64,000 nucleotides of DNA, from sequence record PP418985.1, one strand, 5' to 3'. This document shows positions 2,967 through 63,895 of the stretch, piece by piece. Under the pieces are notes generated by a model. It did not search any database. It had not been told where the DNA came from and was given only the letters and a program-made list of their open reading frames with translations. The DNA comes from Escherichia phage UPWr_E1. The translations under genes were made by a program, and so were the position numbers. Position 1 is the stretch's first letter; the number at the start of each line of letters is the position of its first letter.

Positions 2967-3995
2967 ATGATTTACTACGCAGATTATGAAATAGCGGAAA
3001 AAGCCATATACGGCGAACGAAATTTTAAACGGTTGCATACTAGCTCATTTACGCTGGTCTGTAGTTGTCCGATCTGCGGTGACTCAAAGAAAAATCATAC
3101 TCAAGCGCGATTCCGTATCTATACCTATAAGGATAGTTTGCGTTGTGGCTGTTTCAACTGTAACTACAATCAGCCGTTAGGTGAATTTCTCAAACAGTAT
3201 AAGCCGGACCTATTCAGGGAATGGCTTATGGAGAGACGGAAGGAACAAGGCGACCACAAGAACACCACGTTCAAGCCACTGAAAAAGGTAGAAAAGCCGG
3301 AGATTAAGAAAGTGCAAACATTGCCTTTCTGTGAAAGATTAGATACTCTTCCGGCTAATCATCCTATAATAAAGTATGTCAGTGATCGTTGCATTCCCCA
3401 CGATAAATGGGATCTTCTGTATTTCACGAGAGAATGGCAAAAGGTAGCAAATCACATTAAGGCTGATACTTTTAAGAATCCGCAACCTGAACCGCGTTTA
3501 GTGATTCCTATCTTTAACCGTGAGAACAAGATAGAATCCATTCAGGGGCGAGCATTGAGAAAGGATTACGGAAAGACCAAATATATGACGATTAAAACTC
3601 ACGAGTTAGCGAGTAAGGTCTATGGTCTTGAACGCGCCGATCCGAGAAAGCCAGTGTATTTCTTAGAAGGTCCGATCGATTCATTGTTTATTGATAACGG
3701 GTGTGCAATTACTGGCGGTACTTTGGGATTAGATGAAATCCCTTTCCCAGACCAGCGAGTGTTTGTACTTGATGCGGAACCACGGTCAGCCGATACAATG
3801 CACCGACTGGAAAAGTTTATCAATGCAGGGGAAAAGATTGTTTTGTGGGATCGTTGTCCGTGGCATTCTAAAGACGTTAACGCCATGATTCAGGACGAGG
3901 GCGCTACACGCGACCAGATCATGGAATATATCAAAGAGAACACCGTACAAGGTCTGATGGCTAAAATGCGGTTTATGAAATATTGTAAATTTTAA
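2967..3995 (+). CDS. 61: DNA primase (gp61-like)
   Basis: 342 aa, the T4 gp61 length; N-terminal zinc finger CPICGDSKK...CGCFNC; SD GAGG upstream. Confidence 0.9.
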   Translation: MIYYADYEIAEKAIYGERNFKRLHTSSFTLVCSCPICGDSKKNHTQARFRIYTYKDSLRCGCFNCNYNQPLGEFLKQYKPDLFREWLMERRKEQGDHKNTTFKPLKKVEKPEIKKVQTLPFCERLDTLPANHPIIKYVSDRCIPHDKWDLLYFTREWQKVANHIKADTFKNPQPEPRLVIPIFNRENKIESIQGRALRKDYGKTKYMTIKTHELASKVYGLERADPRKPVYFLEGPIDSLFIDNGCAITGGTLGLDEIPFPDQRVFVLDAEPRSADTMHRLEKFINAGEKIVLWDRCPWHSKDVNAMIQDEGATRDQIMEYIKENTVQGLMAKMRFMKYCKF

Positions 3996-4003
3996 TTAAT
4001 GAG

Positions 4004-4528
4004 GTGAATATGTCAGAATTTAATTCTTGTGCTGGTCTGGTTAACGAAAAAGATATTAACGCGGCTATCGCCGCATATCATCACGCGATTGCAGAAGGTA
4101 AAGATCCGTTTCAGGTGATGCTAGAAATGCAAACTGGTTTGCAGGTTGCATTATCCGAAAAATTTGATTGGGTCCCAAATCCAACTAAGCTAGAGACTTG
4201 CGGTGAAATGCTGGATTGGATGCAACGGATGGATGACGCTATCGCAGACGAAACACGAGAGCTTTACACATCGCTGGGTGGAATGTCCAATGGTAAAGAT
4301 GCAAGTGCAATCTGGAAAATGTGGAAAAAGAACCACGGGGAAGCGCGAGCGCGTAAATTCTCTGAACTGTCACCAGAAGATCAGCTTGAAGTGAAATTTG
4401 AATTTGTGGACGCGATCCACTTCATTCTGTCAAAGATGATCCCGCTGGGTATTGACGCTCAAGAACTCTTTATTCTGTACTATCTGAAAAATGCTGAAAA
4501 CTTCGCCCGTCAAGAACGCGGCTACTAA
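4004..4528 (+). CDS. Putative all-alpha NTP pyrophosphatase (dCTPase gp56-like)
   Basis: 174 aa (T4 gp56 is about 171); acidic helix motifs ADETRELYTSLG and EFVDAIHFIL resemble MazG/dCTPase-type pyrophosphatases; position matches T4 gene 56 region. Confidence 0.45.
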   Translation: MNMSEFNSCAGLVNEKDINAAIAAYHHAIAEGKDPFQVMLEMQTGLQVALSEKFDWVPNPTKLETCGEMLDWMQRMDDAIADETRELYTSLGGMSNGKDASAIWKMWKKNHGEARARKFSELSPEDQLEVKFEFVDAIHFILSKMIPLGIDAQELFILYYLKNAENFARQERGY

Positions 4529-4564
4529 AAATTAGTTGACCCTACTCTATAATGGTTTTATTAT

Positions 4565-4596
4565 GCCTCCCGTCGAAAGATTGGAGGCTTTTTTAT
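4565..4596 (+). terminator. Rho-independent terminator
   Basis: GCCTCC...GGAGGC hairpin followed by TTTTTTATT. Confidence 0.7.
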
Positions 4597-4597
4597 T

Positions 4598-5101
4598 ATG
4601 CAATTTACACCAGAAGAACTTAACATCATTGATGAAGTGATGAACTCTAAAGAAAATATCGATATGTCGATCCTTAATGGATTGATTGAAAAGACTGAAC
4701 GGTTAGTGCATCATGAAGCCTTGTATCGCGGTGTGAGCAAAAGAGAAGGCCGTAAGCTGGATACCTTAATTGTAGGTGATTCTTTCGTTGTAGAGCGTCC
4801 TATGAGCTTTACGCCACTGCAATCAACAGCAGAGGACTTTGCAACCGATGTTTATGCAACAGGAAAGATTATTGCAATAAAACCTACCAAGCCTTGCATG
4901 AATTATTACGAACATGCTATTGATCGAGTGGTGTCTAAAGAGTATGACAATCCGACTACTCGACTGTCTTTGTATGCTATGTTGGCGGATGAGCGCGAGT
5001 GCATATACAAGACAGGGACGACCATGATCCTTGATGAGATCGAGGAAGTTTACGCATGTAACGGCGATCTGATAGAGATTTACAAATTTTCTTTAATTTA
5101 A
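4598..5101 (+). CDS. Hypothetical protein, candidate Mod-like ADP-ribosyltransferase
   Basis: 167 aa; ordered R (LYRGV), S-x-T (MSFTP) and E-x-E (DERECIY) motifs like R-S-E ADP-ribosyltransferases; sits where T4 carries modA/modB. Confidence 0.35.
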   Translation: MQFTPEELNIIDEVMNSKENIDMSILNGLIEKTERLVHHEALYRGVSKREGRKLDTLIVGDSFVVERPMSFTPLQSTAEDFATDVYATGKIIAIKPTKPCMNYYEHAIDRVVSKEYDNPTTRLSLYAMLADERECIYKTGTTMILDEIEEVYACNGDLIEIYKFSLI

Positions 5102-5162
5102 GTGTTGACAGCACAAACCAGATAGACAATAATACACACATACCAACTAAGGAGAATCAATT

Positions 5163-5918
5163 ATGAAACTGTTTGCTTTTAAATCTAACGAAGAATTGGC
5201 GCTGGTTGTTTTCCGTCTGAACTCTATCATGGCTGGCGCTTCTCGTCGTAACAAAGACTTCTCTATGAGCTTAGTCACTGTGCGTAACATCTATCGCCAG
5301 ACTCATTGCGCATATTCCGGTGAGGCTTTCGGTGAAGGTGATGACGGACTCTCCTTAGAGCGCATTGATTGCAATCTGGGATATGTTGATGGCAATGTAA
5401 TTCCGGTTAAACTGAAATACAATTCTTTCCGTGGTAATCATACTATCGAATCTCTTAAAGAGATCCAGGAACTAGGAACTAACGGTAAACTTTCTGATGA
5501 TGAAATTGCCCTACGTGCGAAGTACATCGAGTGGATCGAACTTAACGAGAATCGCATCAAAAATCAGGAAATGGCAATCGAAGAAAAGAAATTAGCAATC
5601 GAGCGCCACAAAAAGCACAACGAACCGGAGAAAGCAGATGCAGCCGAGCGAGCGATTAAAAATACTCTCTTCCGTATGGAAGAACGTTATCAGAAAATTG
5701 CAGATCTCAAGCAAGCCCTTAGCGAAATCAACAAGAAAGAGGAAAAACTTAAGGCTATTGCAAACAATACCGAAATCGTGCTAAAATATACCAGCGTTTT
5801 GATTGAATCTCTTTCTAAGTATGAGAACTTAACGCCAGCACAAAAAGAACGCGTGAAATACGGGCTTCCGATTGATGCGTCGTGGATTGAATTGATGAAA
5901 GCGAAGGTAGGTTTATAA
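5163..5918 (+). CDS. Hypothetical protein with degenerate HNH-like N-terminal region and coiled-coil C-terminal half
   Basis: 251 aa; CAYSG...ERIDCNLGY...GN resembles an inactivated HNH core; positional equivalent of T4 srd (about 250 aa). Confidence 0.3.
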   Translation: MKLFAFKSNEELALVVFRLNSIMAGASRRNKDFSMSLVTVRNIYRQTHCAYSGEAFGEGDDGLSLERIDCNLGYVDGNVIPVKLKYNSFRGNHTIESLKEIQELGTNGKLSDDEIALRAKYIEWIELNENRIKNQEMAIEEKKLAIERHKKHNEPEKADAAERAIKNTLFRMEERYQKIADLKQALSEINKKEEKLKAIANNTEIVLKYTSVLIESLSKYENLTPAQKERVKYGLPIDASWIELMKAKVGL

Positions 5919-11185: not shown

Positions 11186-11214
11186 TTGACACTGGATCGG
11201 GGATATATCATAAT
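11186..11214 (+). promoter_or_regulatory. Sigma70-type early promoter
   Basis: AAAAAGTTGTTGACA then 17 bp then CATAAT; GGGGA/TCCCC inverted repeat flanks the -10. Confidence 0.6.
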
Positions 11215-39215: not shown

Positions 39216-39797
39216 ATGATTCAATGTGTATTTGCGATTGGTAACACTAAAATGTCGGATGAAAATTGGGCGTTTGGTTTTAAAGGCGGTTTACCGTGGG
39301 GTCGTCCAATCAAAAAAGATATGGAAAACTTTAAAATCCGCACCATTGGTGAGGTTGATTTTGCTGCGGTAGTAATGGGACGTAATACCTTTGAAAGTCT
39401 GCCTAAAGCACTTTGGGGACGTTTGAATGTGGTTGTTAGTACCGATACCAGCAAGCCAGAACCGAAAACAAAAAACGGCGACCAACCCGATGTGTATACC
39501 GCAATTACTAATGATGATGAATTAAAGGATCTGTTAAAAGTCCTGGAGAAAACGCAAGGTTTGGTAAGTGTTATCGGTGGACCTTCCCTGATTGAAAAAG
39601 CGGTTGACTTTGCGGACCGTATTGTGTTAACGTATGTTCAACGTTCAGGAATCAACGATCCATTTGAATATGATGTTGGTATCTCTAAGGAAATGATTCA
39701 TGAATTATATTTTGACTTTGCAACAAAAGAAGAACATAATTACTTCCTTGATAATTACCTGATCAGCGAACAAATTTTAGAACGTAAGAAGGCGTAA
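39216..39797 (+). CDS. frd: Dihydrofolate reductase
   Basis: Start moved to ATG after SD AGGAG; GGLPWGRPIKKD and VIGGPSL DHFR motifs. Confidence 0.85.
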   Translation: MIQCVFAIGNTKMSDENWAFGFKGGLPWGRPIKKDMENFKIRTIGEVDFAAVVMGRNTFESLPKALWGRLNVVVSTDTSKPEPKTKNGDQPDVYTAITNDDELKDLLKVLEKTQGLVSVIGGPSLIEKAVDFADRIVLTYVQRSGINDPFEYDVGISKEMIHELYFDFATKEEHNYFLDNYLISEQILERKKA

Positions 39798-39798
39798 C

Positions 39799-39891
39799 AT
39801 GAAAATTCTGACAGATTATGAGTGCAAACATTGTGGTGAATCTTTGATGTTTGCTGGTAGTCGGTGTTTACATTGTGGACGGGAACAATAA
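39799..39891 (+). CDS. Zinc-ribbon miniprotein
   Basis: 30-aa ORF read by hand, CKHCG...CLHCG; low confidence because of size. Confidence 0.25.
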   Translation: MKILTDYECKHCGESLMFAGSRCLHCGREQ

Positions 39892-40160
39892 TGAAAATAA
39901 CCATTATTCAATTATGGTCAGCTACCAGTGAAAACTACGCAGTAGCCGTAGATTATTACGGTTTACAATATCTCTATGATGAAGCTAAAGCGTCATGGCT
40001 TCCAGTACAGGAAAATAGCGACATTTCAAGACCTGTCACTGTATTCGACCCGGGCGTTGTCTTTATCGATATTGACGAGACAGTAGCAAAACTGCGTAAG
40101 AAAGCAATCAACAAGAAAAAGGTGAAGTGGGATGAAAGAATATTTGAAACTGTTGCGTGA
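39891..40160 (+). CDS. Hypothetical protein
   Basis: Start moved to ATG (MKITIIQ). Confidence 0.4.
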   Translation: MKITIIQLWSATSENYAVAVDYYGLQYLYDEAKASWLPVQENSDISRPVTVFDPGVVFIDIDETVAKLRKKAINKKKVKWDERIFETVA

Positions 40161-41364
40161 TGTTCTTGATAATGGCTGGCCTCGTGAAGACCGAACGGGT
40201 GTAGGTACGCTCTCTAAATTCGGCGCAGAGATGCGAATCGATTTAAGCAAGGGTTTCCCCTTACTGACCACTAAAAAGATGGCTACAGCCTCTGTAATTG
40301 GCGAGTTGCTATGGTTTATGGAAGGGTCACTTGACCGCCGTCGCTTACAGGAAATTACACGCGGTAAGTTTGACGAAGAAGCCTTTGATATTTGGCGCGG
40401 TAACTGTCTTGATATGAAAGAAAAGAATCCTTTGCGATTCAATGGTTATAATGTCGGCAATATGTATGGTATGGCATGGCGACGCAAACCGATTCATCCA
40501 CACGGGGAAGTCAAAATTAAGCGCGTTAAAAGCAAATACACGCATACATTTAAGCACCCGTGGGTAGAAGACTTTACGCCAACCAATGACACAGAAGACC
40601 GTTTATGTGCTATCTGGCGTGGTATGCGTTATGAAGAGTTTGATTCTGAATATAATCTATTCTTAGTAGCAGACCACTGGAAGACTCAATCTAATTTTGT
40701 TAATGATGCATATTGCTTGTGGGGATTCCAGGAATGGGTAGATGATGGTTATTTCGGTTATCTGCTTGATAGTGATTATCTGGGTGGGGATATGTTCGCA
40801 CCGGATACCACGATCTTTGTTAGTATGGACGTAGACACATCAAGCCATAAAGACGATGAAGAATATGTCTATCGCCCGAAGATTTGGGAAGACCAGTTAC
40901 AAAACGTGATTGAACAAATTAAAAACAATCCAACGGATCGCCGGATCATTATTGACTCATGGAACGTACAAGGAACACATAATGCTGTATTGGGTGTATG
41001 TCATCCGTTCGTACAATTCTACGTCAATGAAGGTAAACTGTCTTGTATGTGGTTTCAGCGAAGCGTAGACAGCTTTTTGGGCTTGCCCTTTAACGTCGCC
41101 AGCTATGCGCTGTTAACTCACATCATAGCGAAAATGTGTGATCTTGAGGTAGGAGAACTGATTTTCTCTGGTGGAGATACTCACATTTACAAAAACCATT
41201 TTGATCAAGTTACGGAACAGTTAAGCCGTGTTCCTTTTGATAAACCAACAATTGAGTTGCCGGAATTTAAATCTTTAGATGAGGTATTGACAAAGACTCC
41301 GAAAGACTTTAAAATTCACAACTATCAAAGCCATCCAGCAATCACCGCTCAAATGGCAGTATAA
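40132..41364 (+). CDS. td: Thymidylate synthase (ThyA family) with a large internal insertion
   Basis: 410 aa; ThyA blocks DRTGVGT, GELLWF, NPTDRRIIIDSWNV, CHPFVQFYV, QRSVDSFLGLPFN, GGDTHIY; about 125 extra residues between HPHGEV and DQLQNV. Confidence 0.85.
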   Translation: MKEYLKLLRDVLDNGWPREDRTGVGTLSKFGAEMRIDLSKGFPLLTTKKMATASVIGELLWFMEGSLDRRRLQEITRGKFDEEAFDIWRGNCLDMKEKNPLRFNGYNVGNMYGMAWRRKPIHPHGEVKIKRVKSKYTHTFKHPWVEDFTPTNDTEDRLCAIWRGMRYEEFDSEYNLFLVADHWKTQSNFVNDAYCLWGFQEWVDDGYFGYLLDSDYLGGDMFAPDTTIFVSMDVDTSSHKDDEEYVYRPKIWEDQLQNVIEQIKNNPTDRRIIIDSWNVQGTHNAVLGVCHPFVQFYVNEGKLSCMWFQRSVDSFLGLPFNVASYALLTHIIAKMCDLEVGELIFSGGDTHIYKNHFDQVTEQLSRVPFDKPTIELPEFKSLDEVLTKTPKDFKIHNYQSHPAITAQMAV

Positions 41365-41433
41365 ACAAAGGGGGTCGAAAGCCCCCAATATGGAGGATAA
41401 ACTTGTTCCTGCTAAAATATGAAGTGAGGTAAT

Positions 41434-43677
41434 ATGATTAAAAATGTTGTTAAGTCTTCCGGTCTGACTGTTCCGTTTGAAAAAGAAAAAGTAATGAAAA
41501 TTCTGGAAGCGGCAGCCGAAGGTCATAACGTTGATCCATATGAATTGTTTGATATGGTTGAACCACTTCTGACAGAAGGTATGTCTACCAATGATATCCA
41601 GAAAGTATTGATTAAGGTCGCCGCAGATAACATTACTGTAGAAACACCTGATTATCAATATGTAGCAAGTAACCTTGCAATGTTCGCGCTTCGTAAATCA
41701 GTATACGGTCAATTCCAACCTATTGATTTTTATAGCCATATTGAGCGTAATATTGCAACCGGAAAATATGATCGCGAAATTCTGCAAAAGTATTCCCGTG
41801 AAGAAGTGGAATATCTGGAGAAATTCATTGATCATAAACTTGATTTTAAAATGACCTATGCTGGTGCGATGCAGTTAAAAGAGAAATATCTTGTTCAGGA
41901 TCGCAGCACTAAGAAAATCATTGAAACACCGCAATTTGCGTATATGTTGATCGGTATGTGCTTACATCAAGAAGAGACAGAAAATCGACTTGAACATGTG
42001 ATTGATTTTTATAATGCTGTTGCGAATAAGCAAATCTCTCTGCCTACTCCGATTATGGCGGGTGTGCGTACTCCAACACGACAATTTAGTTCGTGTGTGG
42101 TGATCGAATCTGATGATTCATTGCAGGGTATTAATGAAACCGCAAATGCAATCATCAAGTATATTAGCAAGCGTGCTGGTATCGGTATCAACGCTGGCAT
42201 GATTCGCGCGGAAGGATCTAAGATCGGGCATGGTGAAGTTCGTCATACTGGCGTTATCCCATTCTGGAAACATTTTCAGACTGCCGTTAAGTCATGCTCA
42301 CAAGGCGGTATTCGTGGCGGGGCGGCGACTCTCTATTACCCAATGTGGCATTTAGAATTTGAAAGTCTTATTGTGTTGAAGAATAACAAAGGGGTAGAAG
42401 ACAACCGCATTCGCCATCTTGATTACGGCGTACAGATTAATAACCTGATGGTAGAGCGATTCCTTAAACGGGATTACATTACTCTGTTTAGTCCAGATGT
42501 TGCGGGTGGCTTGTTGTGGGATCTGTACTTCCGAGATGAGGAAGGTTTCCGCCAGCTTTACGAAAAACTGGAAAAAGATCCGAGTGTTCGTAAAACTCGT
42601 GTTAAAGCCGAAGACCTGTTTTTAGCGGTGGCAATTGAACGTTTTAACACTGGTCGAATCTATCCAGCGTTCACAGACAACATGAACAATCACGGGGCGT
42701 TTATTCGCAATGTAGCACCGATTAAACAATCTAACCTGTGTTGCGAAATTGCACTGCCTACTAAACCAATGGGGCGTGATGATTCAGAGATCAGCCTATG
42801 TACTTTGGCAGCATATGTTTTAGGTAATTTCGATATCGAAAACATGGAAGAAGTAGAACGCATTGCTATGGTTATGGTGCGTGCACTTGACAACTTGTTA
42901 GATTACCAGGATTATCCCGTAGAACAAGCTCTGACAGCAAAAAAACGTCGCTCTCTGGGTGTTGGTGTGACTAACTTTGCATCATATCTGGCGGATAATT
43001 TCTTCACATATGAAGACGCCAACGAGTTTACGCATAAAACGTTTGAACGCTTGCAATATGCTCTGATTAAGGCTAGTGTGCAACTGGCTAAAGAGAAGGG
43101 TGCTTGCGAACTGATGCACGAAACACGTTATGGTCGCGGTGAACTGCCTATCGACTGGTACAAAAAGACAGTAGATGAACTGGTTGACCCGGTGTATGAG
43201 ATGGATTGGGAAGAACTGCGCGAAGACCTGAAAAAATATGGCATTCGTAACAGTACGCTTTCGGCGCTGATGCCTTGTGAGTCGTCTTCTCAGGTGTCTA
43301 ACAGCACAAACGGTATTGAACCGCCTCGCGGGATTGTATCGGTTAAAGGATCGAAAGAAGGGCAATTTAATCAGGTTATTCCGAACGTAGAGAATAATGC
43401 TGATGTTATTGACTTGCTTTGGACACTGATCAAGAAAGGTAACAAGCCTTATCTGACACTGGCAGCGATTATGCAGAAGTTTGTCGACCAGGCGATTAGT
43501 TCCAATACATCCTATGATCCAAGCACTTATAAGACTGGTAAAGTCGATATTGCTGATGTATTAGATGATATGTTATTTGCTCAATATTACGGCCTCAAGA
43601 CACTGTATTACGCTAACGTGCGTGATGGTGCTGATGGTACGGAAGACGCTAGCGAATGTTCATCTTGCAAACTGTAA
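41434..43677 (+). CDS. nrdA: Ribonucleotide reductase large subunit (class Ia NrdA)
   Basis: 747 aa; N-terminal ATP cone; catalytic-site NLC and C-terminal cysteine pair. Confidence 0.9.
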   Translation: MIKNVVKSSGLTVPFEKEKVMKILEAAAEGHNVDPYELFDMVEPLLTEGMSTNDIQKVLIKVAADNITVETPDYQYVASNLAMFALRKSVYGQFQPIDFYSHIERNIATGKYDREILQKYSREEVEYLEKFIDHKLDFKMTYAGAMQLKEKYLVQDRSTKKIIETPQFAYMLIGMCLHQEETENRLEHVIDFYNAVANKQISLPTPIMAGVRTPTRQFSSCVVIESDDSLQGINETANAIIKYISKRAGIGINAGMIRAEGSKIGHGEVRHTGVIPFWKHFQTAVKSCSQGGIRGGAATLYYPMWHLEFESLIVLKNNKGVEDNRIRHLDYGVQINNLMVERFLKRDYITLFSPDVAGGLLWDLYFRDEEGFRQLYEKLEKDPSVRKTRVKAEDLFLAVAIERFNTGRIYPAFTDNMNNHGAFIRNVAPIKQSNLCCEIALPTKPMGRDDSEISLCTLAAYVLGNFDIENMEEVERIAMVMVRALDNLLDYQDYPVEQALTAKKRRSLGVGVTNFASYLADNFFTYEDANEFTHKTFERLQYALIKASVQLAKEKGACELMHETRYGRGELPIDWYKKTVDELVDPVYEMDWEELREDLKKYGIRNSTLSALMPCESSSQVSNSTNGIEPPRGIVSVKGSKEGQFNQVIPNVENNADVIDLLWTLIKKGNKPYLTLAAIMQKFVDQAISSNTSYDPSTYKTGKVDIADVLDDMLFAQYYGLKTLYYANVRDGADGTEDASECSSCKL

Positions 43678-58654: not shown

Positions 58655-58683
58655 TTGACACCTGATCACGCCTATAGCATAAT
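58655..58683 (+). promoter_or_regulatory. Sigma70-type early promoter
   Basis: AAAAAGTTGTTGACA-17-CATAAT directly after terminator 58607-58632. Confidence 0.6.
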
Positions 58684-59002: not shown

Positions 59003-59031
59003 TTGACACCAAAGTAAGAACATAGCATAAT
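59003..59031 (+). promoter_or_regulatory. Sigma70-type early promoter
   Basis: AAAAAAGTTGTTGACA-17-CATAAT. Confidence 0.6.
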
Positions 59032-59064: not shown

Positions 59065-59346
59065 ATGAAATTCATCAAAGCAACCGAAATCCTGAAAAAC
59101 AAAGAAGCATACATCGGAAACATCGTTGGTATGAACATTCGCGGCGCGGGTAGCCAGTGGACCAAACTGGTTGATGTTAAAGCTAAAGGCGATAAAATCG
59201 AGTTCACTGTAAAAATGCTTACTCATAACGCACATATGGGTATCAAGACAAAAACTATGGCAGCAGATAAAAGCATCAACTATCAAGACCTGGGCGATTG
59301 GCTGAACTGGTGCAAAATGTACAACATCGAAACTAATCACGAATAA
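59065..59346 (+). CDS. Hypothetical small early protein
   Basis: Promoter 59003-59031 upstream. Confidence 0.45.
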   Translation: MKFIKATEILKNKEAYIGNIVGMNIRGAGSQWTKLVDVKAKGDKIEFTVKMLTHNAHMGIKTKTMAADKSINYQDLGDWLNWCKMYNIETNHE

Positions 59347-59360
59347 TTTTAAAAAAGTTG

Positions 59361-59390
59361 TTGACGGGGGATCGGGAGATCCCCTATAAT
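59361..59390 (+). promoter_or_regulatory. Sigma70-type early promoter with palindromic double-GATC spacer
   Basis: TTGACG then GGGGATCGGGAGATCCCC then TATAAT; drives the operon ending in the MTase-like/Zn-ribbon/DUF262 genes. Confidence 0.6.
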
Positions 59391-59430
59391 ACACACATCA
59401 AGACGAGATACTACTTAGGAGAATCAAACA

Positions 59431-59682
59431 ATGGCTAACATCGAAACCGCAAAGAAAATCGCTAAAGACCTGAACGTTAAAGGCTTCCGTAAACTGAAAT
59501 TACAGCGTGTACGCTACACCATCGGCAAACAGTGCTCTTTCATGAGCGAAGAAGTTGCTAACAGCCTCATCGATAATCTGATTGCGGCTGGCTGGGAAGT
59601 TGCGGATCTGAAAACTTGCCGCGAACTGGCTAACAAAGGTCTTTTAGATTCTGTTACTATCAAACCAATGGGGGCAGCGTGA
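59431..59682 (+). CDS. Hypothetical small early protein
   Basis: Promoter 59361-59390 upstream; first gene of a four-gene early operon. Confidence 0.45.
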   Translation: MANIETAKKIAKDLNVKGFRKLKLQRVRYTIGKQCSFMSEEVANSLIDNLIAAGWEVADLKTCRELANKGLLDSVTIKPMGAA

Positions 59683-60395
59683 AACAAAAATTAATATTCT
59701 GCAACTTTGACGGATCGGGGATAATGGGGCTAGAATGGGCTAAAGCAGGTCATAAGGTGATCTGCTTTAATGCTGACGATGGCGACCACGGTACATACAA
59801 AAAATATAATACCCGATTTGAACATCCAAACATTACCTATGTAAACACATGGATTGATTTGAACTGGCTGGAAAGAGCAATGGACCTTGAATGGGGGAAA
59901 CCGGATATTATATTTGCATTCCCACCGTGCACCAATTTAGCTGTTAGTGGCGCTGCACACTTTGAACGAAAGAAACGAGAGCAAGGACCATTAATTCAAG
60001 TTCATGATGTAAGGGCAGCTAAAATAACCGCTTATTTGGGCGAATGGTTAGGAGTTCCCTACATGATAGAGAATCCTGTAAGCGTTATCTCTAGCATGTG
60101 GCGTAAGCCTGATTATATGTTCCATCCGTGGGAATATGGCGGTTATTTGCCGGAAGATGATAAACATCCTACGTTTCCTGAGTATATTGCCGCCCGTGAT
60201 ATGTACCCGAAAAAGACTTGCTTATGGACCGGACAAGGCTTTATAATGCCAGAAAAGAAACCGTTGCAGATTAATAAAGGGTACAGTAAACAGCATTCTA
60301 AGCTAGGCGGGAAAGGAACCAGAACAAAGACTATCAGGTCACTTACACCGCGAGGATTCGCAAAGGCAGTATTTGAAGCCAATAAGGATCTATGA
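59679..60395 (+). CDS. C5-cytosine-methyltransferase-like protein (short; function uncertain)
   Basis: 238 aa; motif I-like FCNFDGSGIMG, motif IV-like Pro-Cys FAFPPCTN, motif VI-like MIENPVS; no obvious target-recognition domain. Confidence 0.4.
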   Translation: MKQKLIFCNFDGSGIMGLEWAKAGHKVICFNADDGDHGTYKKYNTRFEHPNITYVNTWIDLNWLERAMDLEWGKPDIIFAFPPCTNLAVSGAAHFERKKREQGPLIQVHDVRAAKITAYLGEWLGVPYMIENPVSVISSMWRKPDYMFHPWEYGGYLPEDDKHPTFPEYIAARDMYPKKTCLWTGQGFIMPEKKPLQINKGYSKQHSKLGGKGTRTKTIRSLTPRGFAKAVFEANKDL

Positions 60396-60724
60396 TGAGA
60401 TTGTTTAAGTATTCGCTAACGTCAAATTACGATAAACAAGGTCATTGCATCCGTTGCCCTGATTGCCATAGCCATAACATCGAAAGCAGGATCACCGATC
60501 ATATTGATGGACTTTGGTCGCCAGCAAGCGAGATAGAATACTATTGCGCTGATTGCGGAATTGTAGTAGCATATTGGGCATACGGATCATATGATCCCTA
60601 CTTCCAGATGGGAGAGCGTTCAATCCCTGCGCTTATCTGGAGAATTAAGAACAATATCCGCCATTCATGGGATGAGTTCTTAAAAGATATTGATTTACGT
60701 GATGATCCATTCAGGAGACTATAA
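60392..60724 (+). CDS. Zinc-ribbon protein
   Basis: 110 aa; CIRCPDC...CADCG; overlaps both neighbours. Confidence 0.45.
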   Translation: MMRLFKYSLTSNYDKQGHCIRCPDCHSHNIESRITDHIDGLWSPASEIEYYCADCGIVVAYWAYGSYDPYFQMGERSIPALIWRIKNNIRHSWDEFLKDIDLRDDPFRRL

Positions 60725-60725
60725 C

Positions 60726-61244
60726 ATGAACCGTTTAACACCTAAACGCCGTTACTATACCAATACTAAAAACTTTGTCATCTCTGTTTATGAGGCGTGG
60801 TTAGAAGATGGCTATATCAACATGAACCCAGATTATCAGCGTCCTTTAGTATGGGACACCGAAAACAAACGTATGTTTATCGAAAACCTGATTAATGATT
60901 TTCCGGTTGGTGCTATCGCAATGGCTAAGATTGATGATGGCTCTCGCTATGAGATCGAAATCGTGGACGGTAAACAGCGTTTAAACGCAATATTCTCCTT
61001 TATGAAGGATGAGTTTAGCATTGCTGGTAATGATGATTCTATGCTGTATTACAGTGATTTTACGCCAGCAGAAAAGCGACGTTTCCGAAATCTCGGACTA
61101 CCCGCGATCATGATGGAAGAGAGCACAAGAGAAGACCGATTAGAGTATTTCTACAAAACAAACTTTTTCGGTGTTCCTCAATCGGAAGAACATCGCCAGC
61201 ATGTGATTGCCCTATTGCAAGATGAGCAATTAAAAAATAACTAA
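60726..61244 (+). CDS. DUF262 (GmrS-like / ParB-like) domain protein
   Basis: Start moved to MNRLTPK; PDYQRPLVW, FIENLINDFPVGAI, EIVDGKQRLNAIFSF match DUF262 (DGQQR motif as DGKQR). Confidence 0.55.
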   Translation: MNRLTPKRRYYTNTKNFVISVYEAWLEDGYINMNPDYQRPLVWDTENKRMFIENLINDFPVGAIAMAKIDDGSRYEIEIVDGKQRLNAIFSFMKDEFSIAGNDDSMLYYSDFTPAEKRRFRNLGLPAIMMEESTREDRLEYFYKTNFFGVPQSEEHRQHVIALLQDEQLKNN

Positions 61245-61252
61245 AAAAGTTG

Positions 61253-61281
61253 TTGACAGGGGATCATCGATCCCCTATAAT
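61253..61281 (+). promoter_or_regulatory. Sigma70-type early promoter with palindromic double-GATC spacer
   Basis: TTGACA then GGGGATCATCGATCCCC then TATAAT. Confidence 0.65.
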
Positions 61282-61313
61282 ACACACATACCGAAACGAA
61301 AGGAGAATCAAAC

Positions 61314-61493
61314 ATGAAACACTTAACCATCGAATCGGCAATCATCGCAATCGCTAAAGTTCAAGCGGCTTATAATTGCACTGACATTGAAGCCATTTCA
61401 AAAATGCAAGCAGAAGCCGCAAAAGCAGGTGACGAGAAATCTTTAGATGTTCTCTGCGAAATCAAAGCAGAATTAATTTCAAAAATGTTCTAA
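61314..61493 (+). CDS. Hypothetical small early protein
   Basis: 59-aa ORF read by hand, downstream of promoter 61253-61281. Confidence 0.4.
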   Translation: MKHLTIESAIIAIAKVQAAYNCTDIEAISKMQAEAAKAGDEKSLDVLCEIKAELISKMF

Positions 61494-61499
61494 AAGTTG

Positions 61500-61528
61500 T
61501 TGACATAACAGAGGGTGTATATCATAAT
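61500..61528 (+). promoter_or_regulatory. Sigma70-type early promoter with -10 inside a hairpin
   Basis: TTGACA-17-CATAAT; GGGTGTAT/ATACACCC. Confidence 0.6.
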
Positions 61529-61843: not shown

Positions 61844-63895
61844 ATGTTTAACTTAGAAATCGACGATCTAATGATTGAATCTTTCGAGAAATGGCTGTTG
61901 ACGGAAGAGGAAGAAAACTTTGGTAGTATTGCTCCGGTACAGTGCTTAAAGCCTAAGCAGAACCCTAAACAGCTTTTTGCAGTACAGACACGCGATAAAG
62001 ATGTGATTGTCCGTCTTTGTAACTTCACCAACAAAACACCTAAAATCATTCGTCTTGGTGACAAGACCGCACATGTTGTACTGTGCGAAATGAACAAAAG
62101 CGGTCGTATTGTACAGCTTAAAAATGGTCTAGGCGATAACCCGATTGCAGTTATGGCAAGTGCTTTTGATGTGGTTATGGAAACAGCCCGTAAAGCGCAA
62201 TTAGACGCTGTTATGTTCCGTTTTAACGTATCCCGCATGAAAGGTAAGACCGAACTGGTTAAGCGCGTTATAGAGCGTTTGGTGCGTCGTACACCTAAGT
62301 TTGAAGTATTCCAGCAGGAAGTAATGACCAGCAAAAAGATCGCTTTAGTTGTTGTCAAGCGTCGCGGGATGGCGATTGATAAGATTAAAGGGATTAAACT
62401 TGATGATTCCCTGTTCACTAAAGTAGAAAGTGATTTAGGTGATCGCTGGGTATCTAAAGCTACTGGCGAATCTCTGACTAAAGATGAAGCGTATGCGGCT
62501 AGCCTTGCATCAGAAGAAGAACGAAACGCAGAAGCGGAACAACGTGTAGCGGCTAAGTCTCGTTTGACTAAAGAAGAAATGCTGAAAACTCAAGCGACCT
62601 ATAACAGCGACTATGTGAATCATCCAGAAAAAATTAATCTTAAACCGGAAGAAGATATCACCGAAGCCGAACCTAAGAAACAGTTTAATACTCTGATTGA
62701 TCGTCAAGCCTTAGAACGTTCAACCGCTCGTTCTCTGAATGACTGGACAAGTGATATTATCACTCGCTACGGTTTCATGCGTACTATTTTTGAAAGCGAA
62801 GCCGATGCAAAATACGCAGTAAGCGAACTGGTAAAAGTTCAGGACCAATATGATCCGTTGTCTGCGGAAGTTATTGCAGCATCAATCAAACGCTTAAAAG
62901 AAATCATGAGCGAGGAAGTATTCGAAAACAAGATCACCGCCCTGGCAATGGATCGAGTAGACCAGTCTATGCCAGCAGATGTAAAAGCTGAAATGCTTCG
63001 TAGTCACATCACACAGATTAAAACCGATGCCCTACGTAATGTTGCTTCCGGTATGTTTGAAGCAATTGCTAGCAACATGGGTGAAATGATGGCAAATATT
63101 GATCTTGATCTGCCGGGCGCGGAAGGTTTTGTGTTGAGCGAATATGCCGATGCAGCATACATCAATATGAACAACTTCCTAACCGACCGTAAGCTGGAAG
63201 AGTTTGACGGCATCGCAGATCCAGAAGAATTGGTCAAGATGTGCGATGCACTGGATAATGCCTTCTCTAACTATGGCGTTAAACTTGATCCGGGTACTAT
63301 TCTGTATCGTGGTATGGACTTCCGGTCTCAAATGTGGGAAACTGCACGTAAGCAAAAAGCGTTTTACTTTAAAAACTATGTGAGCACTTCCCTTGCACCT
63401 AACATTTTTGGTGGCTGGAATGCAAACGTGGCTAGTGCCGTTGCTGGTGTAGATTCTATGGCTGGATCTCGCGGTGAAGGTGGCGCTAATGTTGCTTTCT
63501 CCATTGCTGGCGCGGAAAACATCCCTGTATTGCCAGTAGGTAACAAGGCATTTGCTTACAAAGAATGCGAGATTTTACTTCCTCGCGGTGTTGTGTTATC
63601 CTTTGATACGGTAACTCGTGCTACGGCATCGACGGATTCACAAGAAACTTATTACATTGAGGCACATATTATGAACAAAAATGAACTGGCAGCATTACAA
63701 GAATCTGGCGAGATGATCGCGGACGGTGATGCATTCATCCGTGAAGGTGTTGTTAAACCTGCTTCTGACCTGTCTTTCTCCAGCTTTATTACCGAAGCTA
63801 AAACCGAACGTAAGAAAGCAGATAAGGCAACTCTACGTCAGCTTATCGCTGATCTGGTATCTGTAGACGCAATGCCAGATAAATTTAAAATGTAA
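61844..63895 (+). CDS. alt: Alt-like ADP-ribosyltransferase (virion-injected)
   Basis: 683 aa (T4 Alt is 682); C-terminal R-S-E motifs ILYRGMDF, YVSTSLAP, ECEILLP; located beside gene 30 as in T4. Confidence 0.8.
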   Translation: MFNLEIDDLMIESFEKWLLTEEEENFGSIAPVQCLKPKQNPKQLFAVQTRDKDVIVRLCNFTNKTPKIIRLGDKTAHVVLCEMNKSGRIVQLKNGLGDNPIAVMASAFDVVMETARKAQLDAVMFRFNVSRMKGKTELVKRVIERLVRRTPKFEVFQQEVMTSKKIALVVVKRRGMAIDKIKGIKLDDSLFTKVESDLGDRWVSKATGESLTKDEAYAASLASEEERNAEAEQRVAAKSRLTKEEMLKTQATYNSDYVNHPEKINLKPEEDITEAEPKKQFNTLIDRQALERSTARSLNDWTSDIITRYGFMRTIFESEADAKYAVSELVKVQDQYDPLSAEVIAASIKRLKEIMSEEVFENKITALAMDRVDQSMPADVKAEMLRSHITQIKTDALRNVASGMFEAIASNMGEMMANIDLDLPGAEGFVLSEYADAAYINMNNFLTDRKLEEFDGIADPEELVKMCDALDNAFSNYGVKLDPGTILYRGMDFRSQMWETARKQKAFYFKNYVSTSLAPNIFGGWNANVASAVAGVDSMAGSRGEGGANVAFSIAGAENIPVLPVGNKAFAYKECEILLPRGVVLSFDTVTRATASTDSQETYYIEAHIMNKNELAALQESGEMIADGDAFIREGVVKPASDLSFSSFITEAKTERKKADKATLRQLIADLVSVDAMPDKFKM

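Follow-up and report, generated by a model that had tools for sequence, protein, structure and literature searches.

Promoter-early stem-loops (PeSLs) with both terminator and promoter functions have been described in phages RB49 and phi1, and gene shuffling mediated by these elements has been documented (PMC2839356). Among phage cytosine methyltransferases, the Dcm enzyme of phage K42, expressed alone from a plasmid, yields 5mC in the msDNA of retron Ec86, as detected by LC-MS; it triggers Ec86 in a manner dependent on a CCTGG site, a quadruple mutant that includes the catalytic Cys is inactive, and dcm+ MG1655 does not self-trigger the retron (10.1101/2023.08.16.553469). Since dcm+ MG1655 shows no self-triggering of Ec86, the K42 enzyme must differ from the host Dcm in site or substrate. 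DUF262, for its part, provides several defence systems with their sensor module. Here we describe a phage early operon in which a Dcm-like gene and a DUF262 gene lie close together.

The window, that is, the whole stretch of 64,000 nucleotides of Escherichia phage UPWr_E1 analysed here (PP418985.1), is that of a Krischvirus (RB49-like), with 96-98% nucleotide identity to more than 50 sequenced phages, including Brandy, JK32, JSE and RB49. An earlier note, made from the sequence, had described three overlapping early genes transcribed from a palindromic-spacer promoter at 59361. All three ORFs are present and are co-transcribed early genes, and the families proposed for them are correct: C5-methyltransferase-like, zinc ribbon, and DUF262 without a DUF1524/HNH partner. 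The lack of T4 counterparts also fits the hit distributions, for the zinc-ribbon and DUF262 proteins. However, the unit that begins at 59361 contains four genes and not three, the first being an 83-aa ORF that the note omitted and that is 100% identical to RB49p190 (Table 1). The end of this ORF overlaps the GTG start codon of the methyltransferase gene via GTGA, and the methyltransferase stop overlaps the zinc-ribbon start via ATGA; the overlap claimed for the trio thus holds at the latter junction, but not between the zinc-ribbon and DUF262 genes, which are separated by a 1-nt gap. In the RB49 annotation the order is ORF190, ORF189.1, ORF189 ("DNA methyltransferase"), ORF188 and ORF187, followed by alt.

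Table 1. Features of the early operon and its boundaries (positions in the window)
Feature	Position	Strand	Basis
Upstream PeSL (promoter-early stem-loop)	59361..59390	+	Sequence, promoter scan, motif count
83-aa protein, first gene, RB49 ORF190 homologue	59431..59682	+	phrog_14908, E 5e-59
Compact orphan Dcm-like C5-cytosine DNA methyltransferase (by homology), 238 aa, RB49 ORF189	59679..60395	+	phrog_757, E 2e-90
Zinc-ribbon protein, 110 aa, RB49 ORF188	60392..60724	+	phrog_2993, E 7e-34
Stand-alone mini-DUF262 (ParB/Srx-fold NTPase-like) protein, 172 aa, RB49 ORF187	60726..61244	+	Pfam GmrSD_N
Downstream PeSL	61253..61281	+	Sequence, promoter scan, motif count

The sigma-70-like promoter with a palindromic spacer that the note had placed upstream is indeed there, and a second one lies downstream. 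The upstream PeSL, which scores 11/12 in the promoter scan, consists of TTGACG, an 18-nt spacer with the palindrome GGGGATC-GGGA-GATCCCC, and TATAAT; the downstream PeSL matches at 12/12, with TTGACA, 17 nt containing the palindrome GGGGATC-ATC-GATCCCC, and TATAAT. Five copies of the motif occur in the window, where shuffled sequences give an expectation of 0, and the GEC-3S annotation has promoters at the equivalent sites. The upstream PeSL drives the four-gene operon, whereas the downstream PeSL, by analogy with the terminator and promoter functions already described (PMC2839356), would close this unit and open the next small cassette. The stretch 59361-61281 is therefore a PeSL-bounded, four-gene early accessory operon in a hyperplastic region, and the trio represents its last three genes.

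The methyltransferase matches the phrog_757 profile over its full length (residues 1-237, E = 2.1e-90), in a family of 7,317 homologues that are all about 225-260 aa long. The motifs named in the note are invariant in 33 homologues: F10/G12/S13/G14 in motif I (F10-D-G12-S13-G14), P82/P83/C84 in motif IV and E131/N132/P133 in motif VI, an ENP variant of ENV. Pfam PF00145 aligns with residues 10-100 only, motif I included, and scores 13.9 bits against a cut-off of 22; because Pfam thresholds miss this class, annotation pipelines under-call compact methyltransferases. NCBIfam gave no match for either the methyltransferase or the DUF262 protein. End to end, the protein is 56% identical (E = 4e-92) to the Dcm-like enzyme bas06_0055 of phage KarlJaspers, and 56-64% identical to phrog_757 members in Drexlerviridae, Dhillonvirus and Vequintavirinae. 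Its predicted catalytic residues Cys84, Glu131 and Lys178/179 align with the residues mutated in K42 Dcm, C84 with C82 of the KarlJaspers/K42 enzyme and E131 with K42 E128. The AF2 model (pLDDT 88.9) has DNMT3A2 (1e-7), DNMT1 and DIM2 as its three top Foldseek matches in the PDB, generic Rossmann methyltransferases ranking lower; PDB sequence searches, with the single sequence and with the family profile, returned no match, and the link to the DNMTs is one of fold comparison.

The note had judged the protein too short for a normal target-recognition domain (TRD). There is indeed no sizeable TRD, as no more than about 40 residues lie between the KK-strand (178-185) and the RSLTPRGF helix region at the C-terminal end, and this holds family-wide; the length is not anomalous, however, about 230 aa being the norm for more than 7,000 proteins. 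Since the K42 version of the 56%-identical enzyme is active when expressed alone, members of this family are normally without a TRD and yet can be active. Homology places ORF 59679-60395 in the widespread phage "Dcm-like" family, as a compact orphan C5-cytosine DNA methyltransferase that needs no partner; its specificity could, at 56% identity, differ from that of the K42/KarlJaspers enzyme.

The supposition that the phage carries modified cytosine is contradicted by what is known of its genus. HpaII and NheI digest RB49 DNA, which has no hmC/ghmC (PMC4041780), Krischvirus TB34 has canonical nucleosides (PMC13390438), and the window strongly avoids restriction sites, with 31 CCWGG observed versus about 64-72 expected, 27 GGCC versus 72, no GAATTC versus 15 and no GGTACC versus 8. 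Given that Krischviruses have ordinary cytosine, the paradox of a modified-cytosine phage encoding a cytosine methyltransferase does not arise. Krischvirus SAP has been reported to contain hmC/glucosyl-hmC, although Krischviruses have no hmC synthase or glucosyltransferase genes (PMC13390438). The cassette was considered as the cause of this difference between SAP and TB34 and rejected, as no SNIPPY variant falls within SAP 39772-41827; with the cassette identical in modified and unmodified phages, the trio has no bearing on SAP cytosine modification. As a separate observation, the substitutions between SAP and TB34 look like base-calling artefacts at CCWGG sites.

In the zinc-ribbon protein, the pairs C22/C25 and C52/C55 are invariant across the aligned relatives, which bears out the family call, and there is an additional cysteine, C19. 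The Pfam zinc-ribbon models all remain below their cut-offs (a weak match to Zn_Ribbon_TF reaches 19 bits); relatives are found in 90 phage records, those in Nonagvirus at about 42% identity.

The DUF262 assignment is firm, with 73.2 bits to Pfam GmrSD_N (PF03235) versus a cut-off of 33.2 (E = 4e-20). The protein carries the motifs YQRPLVW, DGKQR and GVPQSEEH; YQR..VW and DGKQR are invariant, as is the C-terminal GVPQSEEH throughout the mini-DUF262 family. It ends at residue 172 and its operon neighbours are the zinc ribbon and the PeSL, so that, within the operon, no nuclease partner is fused or adjacent. This family comprises at least 150 clusters at 50% identity; the best 150 representatives all stop at the end of the DUF262 part, and a C-terminal extension is absent in 80 of 86 related loci. 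After the ParB-like core there are two or three helices only, and neither Pfam nor PHROG nor fold searches gave a match beyond DUF262 that would represent an attached DNA-binding domain (HTH or ParBDB). The best PADLOC match is Menshen NsnA (1e-20, residues 13-150), followed by PD-T4-2_A at 5e-12, and profile matches to the PDB DUF262 proteins 9jfl (DndI type) and BrxU 7p9k reach 25-31 bits; similarity to defence proteins is low and confined to the universal nucleotide-binding motifs. Nearly all of the top 20 or so PDB structures retrieved by Foldseek belong to the ParB superfamily (Noc, ParB-CTP, KorB, PadC, BrxU and DndI-type), in matches that are weak (E 4e-3 to 0.1, for a model of pLDDT 71). 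Relatives are present in 305 phage records; many stand-alone ones come from the T4-like genera Krischvirus, Slopekvirus and Pseudotevenvirus, of which the last two are not known to carry hmC, and P22-like temperate phages and jumbo phages encode members of the family as well. We found no literature on phage stand-alone DUF262 proteins. These results show that ORF 60726-61244 is a true DUF262/ParB-fold protein of a large, nuclease-less family of small proteins.

The idea of a three-gene cassette failed the co-occurrence check outside the genus, as the trio occurs together only in near-identical Krischvirus genomes (97-100% identity). Methyltransferase relatives are found in 1,524 phage records, and the neighbourhoods of methyltransferase, zinc-ribbon and DUF262 relatives show no overlap outside Krischvirus; in HMM searches over 93 loci, the methyltransferase was near a mini-DUF262 gene only in Krischvirus. 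Homologues with 60% identity stand alone among tail or replication genes, and in every non-Krischvirus context inspected the methyltransferase is without either partner. A scan of metagenomes for diverged zinc-ribbon and DUF262 pairs returned 42 zinc-ribbon loci. In the diverged contig L015 the operon is headed by a 72%-identical copy of the 83-aa gene (p190), followed by p189.1 (69%), the zinc ribbon (66%), a 46-aa ORF and DUF262 (56%), and the methyltransferase is absent. Some relatives have ORF189.1 and others do not, and the same holds for an ORF of 46-59 aa (59 aa in L113, 46 aa in L015). Among the zinc-ribbon loci from the metagenomes are four near-identical Krischvirus contigs; three of them also have DUF262, and in the fourth (L110) the zinc ribbon is accompanied by the methyltransferase only. 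The methyltransferase gene thus moves independently: about 1,500 phage genomes carry it by itself, and the L015 operon, syntenic in other respects, lacks it. The 83-aa gene, the zinc ribbon and mini-DUF262 remain linked to one another.

A conserved partner of mini-DUF262 was sought by clustering + strand ORFs within 1.8 kb at 86 loci, and lineage-specific neighbours only were found. For Slopekvirus and Pseudotevenvirus, the idea that a remote zinc ribbon precedes DUF262 was discarded, as the upstream ORFs of 107-109 aa have no cysteines. A general association between methyltransferases and mini-DUF262, screened by motifs and Pfam, was likewise set aside, being too sparse across 41 lineages and having no proper background control: a methyltransferase is near mini-DUF262 in 2 of 18 P22-like loci (a C5 methyltransferase in one, a DUF4942/MTS protein in the other), and a putative DPPY protein lies 2 kb away in one lineage. 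Real as the three genes are, comparison shows them to be neighbours and not a conserved three-part system, and the trio as stated reveals no new system.

We consider it likely that the locus holds an orphan anti-restriction methyltransferase inserted in a mosaic accessory operon, whose genes are neighbours and not one machine. The enzyme, made early, would methylate cytosine at CCWGG-type sites on phage DNA and so may shield the residual CCWGG sites (31 in 64 kb) from EcoRII-type restriction, a protection that would matter above all where the host is dcm-negative, as E. coli B is; its cost would be that it can trigger retron Ec86. Some observations count against this reading. In TB34, a Krischvirus, HPLC-MS found no modified nucleosides (PMC13390438), which means either that methylation is sparse (less than about 0.5% of C if at CCWGG only) or that the enzyme acts little on phage DNA. 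The tight translational coupling (the GTGA and ATGA overlaps and the 1-nt gap) would be compatible with a functional complex too, and at one locus (L016) a non-homologous amino-methyltransferase-like gene with an SPPY motif overlaps the mini-DUF262 gene.

The coupling and the L016 overlap would both be expected if the methyltransferase, lacking a TRD, were a core that relied on the zinc ribbon to bind DNA and on the ParB-like DUF262 protein as its NTP-driven clamp or activator in order to find and methylate its target, much as in the ParB-dependent phage thymidine dioxygenases. Such integration finds precedent in the Clade E 5mYOX dioxygenases, which require ParB-like proteins without a DNA-binding domain (10.1101/2025.08.14.668559), and the C5 methyltransferase of the P22-like locus lies about 0.8 kb from mini-DUF262. 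We nevertheless regard it as decidedly unlikely: the K42 homologue is active when expressed alone, homologues in about 1,500 phage records have neither partner, in L015 the zinc ribbon and DUF262 are retained where the methyltransferase is absent, and no methyltransferase recurs as a neighbour across the 41 mini-DUF262 lineages, with one at 2 of 18 loci only in the P22-like lineage. It is hardly credible that the C5-methyltransferase-like protein attaches something other than a methyl group to cytosine and so accounts for the hmC/glucosyl-hmC in SAP. The report of modified cytosine without synthase or glucosyltransferase genes speaks for it (PMC13390438), but the cassette is identical in SAP and in unmodified TB34, RB49 has the same gene and no hmC/ghmC (PMC4041780), the K42 homologue yields 5mC (10.1101/2023.08.16.553469), and the SAP/TB34 substitutions resemble base-calling artefacts.

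Other explanations centre on the DUF262 protein. It might, possibly with the zinc ribbon, act as a decoy that poisons host DUF262 sensors or competes with them (GmrSD/BrxU, SspE, Menshen NsnA, PD-T4-2), and could in this way protect the phage's own 5mC-marked DNA. Its closest similarities are to sensor domains found in defence proteins (NsnA, PD-T4-2_A, DndI type, BrxU), and its gene is expressed early in an accessory-gene region. BrxU has been reported to cleave 5mC DNA, and TB34 is not restricted by it (PMC13390438). Yet unmodified DNA explains the resistance of TB34 more simply (PMC13390438), the resemblance to any defence protein is confined to low-scoring universal motifs, and the invariant GVPQSEEH and the large family of small proteins argue for an activity of its own and not for mimicry, so that we think a decoy unlikely. 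DUF262 is also the modified-DNA sensor of GmrSD-type enzymes, and a two-gene GmrS1 plus GmrSD2 system exists; the protein could then sense the hmC/glucosyl-hmC of T-even phages and recruit a nuclease encoded elsewhere, as a split GmrS/GmrD for inter-phage exclusion. The frequency of stand-alone relatives in Krischvirus, Slopekvirus and Pseudotevenvirus would suit this, RB49 being without hmC by experiment (PMC4041780). With no nuclease gene in the operon, no conserved neighbour across 86 loci, no extension of any kind in 80 of 86 relatives, and a family that extends to P22-like temperate and jumbo phages, exclusion appears very improbable.

For the two genes that accompany the methyltransferase we propose, from one diverged contig (L015) and from domain logic, that the zinc ribbon would bind nucleic acid or protein while the ParB-like domain would act as an NTP-gated switch, directed at host defence, host DNA or a competitor phage. 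It is a doubtful possibility that the two proteins together form an undescribed phage split ParB-like NTP switch, serving in counter-defence or as an optional accessory factor for DNA methyltransferases; in counter-defence, the pair might neutralise DUF262-based sensors, or the Ec86 response that a Dcm-like enzyme would otherwise provoke in E. coli B. If this were true, the mini-DUF262 family would represent phage early proteins of a new functional class.

The methyltransferase once judged too short belongs to a class of orphan C5-methyltransferases that is active and very common among phages, with more than 1,500 phage genomes encoding one, and such compact enzymes matter both for restriction evasion and as triggers of retron immunity. 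Diverse phages encode the large nuclease-less mini-DUF262 family, and since several defence systems use DUF262 as their sensor, its phage-side members are reasonable targets for anti-defence screens.

Compared with described systems, the methyltransferase is closest to the K42/KarlJaspers Bas06 Dcm that triggers retron Ec86: it has 238 aa versus 236, equal positions of the catalytic Cys, Glu and Lys-Lys, the fold class of DNMT3A, and the setting of a single-gene orphan in a phage accessory region. Unlike that enzyme, which belongs to a Drexlerviridae genome, it lies in a T4-like Krischvirus operon; its Pfam PF00145 score is below the cut-off. With the type IV restriction enzymes GmrSD and BrxU, the DUF262 protein shares an N-terminal domain with QR..VW and DGxQR motifs; it differs in having no DUF1524/HNH nuclease domain, fused or adjacent, in its 172 aa only, in its own conserved C-terminal GVPQSEEH, and in being phage-encoded and expressed early. 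The ParB-DUF262 domain is common to the Menshen sensor NsnA, which, unlike the phage protein, has a C-terminal ParBDB DNA-binding domain and the partners NsnB and NsnC. The phage protein also resembles the ParBs associated with 5mYOX, being small, of ParB/Srx fold and devoid of a DNA-binding domain, with a gene that neighbours that of a DNA-modifying enzyme; those ParBs, however, belong to the PF02195 type, contain a dimerisation domain and are consistently found with their enzyme (10.1101/2025.08.14.668559), whereas the methyltransferase here is dispensable, and active alone in a homologue. Finally, the operon resembles the PeSL-bounded ORFan cassettes of RB49/phi1 (Arbiol et al. 2010) in being flanked by strong stem-loop-spacer sigma-70-like promoters and in having a gene content that varies among close relatives, but it is larger than the typical single-ORF cassette, with four to six genes, and its indels fall inside the unit, at gene junctions, and not at the PeSLs.

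The three genes that the earlier note had described as an unexpected cassette, encoding a C5-methyltransferase-like protein, a zinc ribbon and a DUF262 protein (ORF1 to ORF3), are present on the plus strand as proposed. That observation was largely right and its domain calls were correct; the cassette itself is an orphan Dcm-like methyltransferase plus a linked pair of zinc ribbon and mini-DUF262, the family of small stand-alone, ParB-like DUF262 proteins to which ORF3 belongs. The palindromic-spacer promoter noted upstream is real and is a promoter-early stem-loop (PeSL), a motif that occurs five times in the window and never in shuffled sequences. In RB49 and phi1, PeSLs are strong promoters with terminator stem-loops and mediate the modular shuffling of hyperplastic regions (PMC2839356). 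However, the transcription unit has four genes and not three, because an 83-aa ORF (p190) lies between the promoter and the methyltransferase gene, its stop overlapping the start of the latter as GTGA. The genes had also been said to overlap, which is true of ORF1 and ORF2 (ATGA) but not of ORF2 and ORF3, whose 1-nt gap is preceded by an AGGAG Shine-Dalgarno sequence. PeSL-type promoters form an array, one before each small ORF cassette, with additional members at 11186, 19318, 54379 and 55597. A weaker sigma-70-like match within the 5' end of the methyltransferase gene (59707-59736; TTGACG, 18 nt, TAGAAT; 10/12) probably arose by chance.

Coordinates of the features at the locus and of the substitutions in phage SAP
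Feature	Position	Strand	Remarks
ORF1, methyltransferase	59679-60395	+	238 aa, GTG start
ORF2, zinc ribbon	60392-60724	+	110 aa
ORF3, DUF262 protein	60726-61244	+	172 aa
83-aa ORF (p190)	59431-59682	+	RB49 ORF190 counterpart, phrog_14908
alt	61844-63895		in the window
Upstream PeSL	59361-59390		TTGACG at 59361, spacer palindrome GGGGATC-GGGA-GATCCCC, TATAAT ending 59390
Second PeSL	61253-61281
Further PeSLs	58655-58683, 59003-59031, 61500-61528
SAP substitutions	2830, 5316, 11508, 15164, 19368, 21108, 31223, 32862		L109, OZ034687.1

More than 50 sequenced Krischvirus genomes, Brandy, JK32, JSE, RB49, GEC-3S and TB34 included, are 96-98% identical to 59300-61350. The RB49 equivalents are ORF189 (annotated 'DNA methyltransferase'), ORF188 and ORF187, directly 5' of two small ORFs and alt. 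The cassette had seemed unexpected in a phage thought to carry modified cytosine; data on RB49 and TB34, together with site avoidance in the window, speak for unmodified cytosine. RB49 lacks hydroxymethylase and glucosyltransferase, and HpaII and NheI both cleave its DNA (PMC4041780); in a 2026 study TB34 contained canonical nucleosides only, and the genus Krischvirus lacks hmC pathway genes (PMC13390438). In the window (1-64000), GAATTC and GGTACC are absent, against 15-20 and 8 expected; GGCC occurs 27 times (72-108 expected), CCWGG 31 times (64-72) and CCNGG 43 times (about 102), and GATC shows no depletion (354 against 347). Such strong restriction-site avoidance is typical of an unmodified-cytosine phage.

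In ORF2, assigned to phrog_2993, both cysteine pairs of the zinc ribbon (C22/C25 and C52/C55) are invariant; its relatives beyond Krischvirus, at about 40% identity, are in Nonagvirus and scattered metagenomic contigs. The DUF262 assignment of ORF3 is borne out by matches to Pfam GmrSD_N (73 bits), to PADLOC NsnA (1e-20) and, using the family profile, to the PDB DUF262 proteins 9jfl (E 2e-6) and BrxU (E 1e-4). For its model, of moderate confidence (pLDDT 71), the top fold matches are almost all in the ParB superfamily (Noc, CTP-bound ParB, KorB, PadC and BrxU). The motifs YQR..VW, DGKQR and the family-specific GVPQS(E)EH are invariant. A truncated GmrSD was considered and rejected, the C-terminal extension being absent in 80 of the 86 related loci. 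At E <= 1e-30 an exhaustive HMMER search returned 73 representatives, a number that rose to 5,148 at E <= 1e-10. The top 150 are 128-344 aa long, all with the DUF262 part at the extreme C-terminus, either stand-alone or with about 100 extra residues at the N-terminus. This extension marks a second size class (about 250-340 aa; P0127, about half of the relatives, e.g. loci L058-L098), and it gives a faint SH3/KOW-like signal (RimP C-terminal SH3, E 0.013). Mini-DUF262 proteins are small phage proteins without a nuclease part and form a family of their own; we found no literature on their function, and it is in this uncharacterised family that the remaining interest lies.

Within Krischvirus the three genes are always together, but this says little because the genomes compared are 95-100% identical to each other. 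Beyond this genus the trio was not found together, and the idea of a conserved three-gene cassette does not hold. Methyltransferase homologues of 60% identity stand without the partners beside HNH genes in a phage of 152 kb, within the SSE121 replication module and between siphovirus tail genes, and neither zinc ribbon nor mini-DUF262 was found in KarlJaspers (Bas06). In Slopekvirus KP27, Pseudotevenvirus Margaery and a P22-like phage the mini-DUF262 homologues lie among unrelated genes; in HMM searches of 93 mini-DUF262 loci the methyltransferase was nearby in Krischvirus loci only, and no neighbour family is shared among the 41 mini-DUF262 lineages. IMG/VR and metagenomes yielded 52 zinc-ribbon loci, of which only near-identical Krischvirus contigs had the other two genes as well. 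One contig (L110, MAVA01000018.1, 3-1185) has a partial methyltransferase gene, the zinc ribbon and then, in opposite orientation, another copy of the methyltransferase gene, without DUF262; this arrangement probably reflects a chimeric or inverted assembly.

Most can be learnt from a 2.6-kb metagenomic contig of a diverged relative (L015, ENA ERZ27254724 k141_110561, genes in 20-1528), which encodes p190 (72% identity), the RB49 ORF189.1 homologue p189.1 (69%), the zinc ribbon (66%), mini-DUF262 (56%) and a 46-aa ORF, and in whose operon the methyltransferase is absent. In RB49-type genomes ORF189.1 sits between p190 and the methyltransferase, and an ORF of 46-59 aa separates zinc ribbon and DUF262 in L015 and in a Krischvirus contig (L113, 3836-4015). 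The window has neither, and upstream RB49 ORF191 and ORF192 are also missing; the loss of ORF192, ORF191 and ORF189.1 relative to RB49 is consistent with PeSL-mediated or junction-mediated deletions. From the operon lacking the methyltransferase, and from other elements coming and going, we conclude that p190, zinc ribbon and mini-DUF262 form the stable operon core and that the methyltransferase is an insert which moves independently. The zinc ribbon and mini-DUF262 are a linked pair, and the mosaic operon that holds them is bounded by PeSLs.

A modification module that needs all three parts is quite unlikely, given methyltransferase homologues without partners and L015 without the methyltransferase. 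What points towards it is a second, non-homologous adjacency in Logan contig ERR11525653_9905 (L016), where an amino-methyltransferase-like gene (3953-5026; 357 aa, motif I DMSSGYGG, motif IV SPPY; Pfam N6_N4_Mtase 19 bits, under the cut-off) runs 26 nt into the start of a mini-DUF262 gene (5001-5507) whose product is 46% identical to ORF3. A few other mini-DUF262 loci have methyltransferases no more than 1-2 kb away; these cases are too sparse to establish an association. That the DUF262 protein acts as a decoy or in counter-defence is unlikely, and a role in inter-phage exclusion very unlikely.

Hypermodification by the cassette is also very unlikely. Phage SAP, 99.96% identical to TB34, is reported to contain hmC and glucosyl-hmC of unexplained origin (PMC13390438); because no variant between the two falls within the cassette, the latter does not explain their difference in modification. 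The eight substitutions examined, from the published SNIPPY table and all in the first 50 kb, read CCSGG in SAP and CCWGG in TB34 (8/8); the remaining listed differences are mostly 1-nt indels, with a few 2-nt or complex variants. The substitutions resemble base-calling errors at sites of Dcm type (CCWGG) and not real divergence, and the pattern is a hint that one of the DNA preparations contained 5mC at CCWGG.

For ORF1, the C5-methyltransferase-like call holds. PF00145 reaches 13.9 bits over residues 10-100, under the cut-off of 22, and the whole protein is assigned to phrog_757 'DNA methyltransferase' (PHROGs, E 2e-90); F10/G12/S13/G14, P82/P83/C84 and E131/N132/P133 are unchanged in 33 homologues. 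The confident AlphaFold model (pLDDT 88.9, pTM 0.88) best matches the catalytic domains of DNMT3A2 (E 1e-7), DNMT1 and DIM2, with generic Rossmann methyltransferases ranking below. At E <= 1e-3 this very large family has 7,317 members, each of about 225-260 aa, and homologues occur in 1,524 phage records. Published work supplies the decisive evidence. Mutants of K42, a relative of KarlJaspers, that escape retron Ec86 have lost a 711-bp 'Dcm-like' gene, whose product expressed alone triggers the retron and places 5mC on msDNA (LC-MS); the C82A/E128A/K175A/K176A mutant is inactive, and a CCTGG site is required for defence (10.1101/2023.08.16.553469). KarlJaspers bas06_0055 (711 bp) is 56% identical to ORF1 over its full length (E 4e-92), and C82, E128 and K175/176 align with C84, E131 and K178/179. 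ORF1 does lack a normal target-recognition domain, as noted earlier; because the K42 enzyme acts alone, this is not an anomaly but a trait of an active, self-sufficient family. E. coli B/BL21 harbours Ec86, the retron set off by a phage Dcm-like enzyme (10.1101/2023.08.16.553469), yet E. coli B is the propagation host of the RB49 stock (PMC4041780), and Krischviruses carry a Dcm-like gene of their own. The K42 enzyme must differ somehow from host Dcm, because dcm+ MG1655 shows no retron self-triggering. As an orphan Dcm-like methyltransferase ORF1 is ordinary and had been annotated before, and its family has been characterised experimentally; the specificity of ORF1 would be CCWGG-type. Evading restriction at such sites is its most likely role, and it may come at a cost where retron Ec86 is present.
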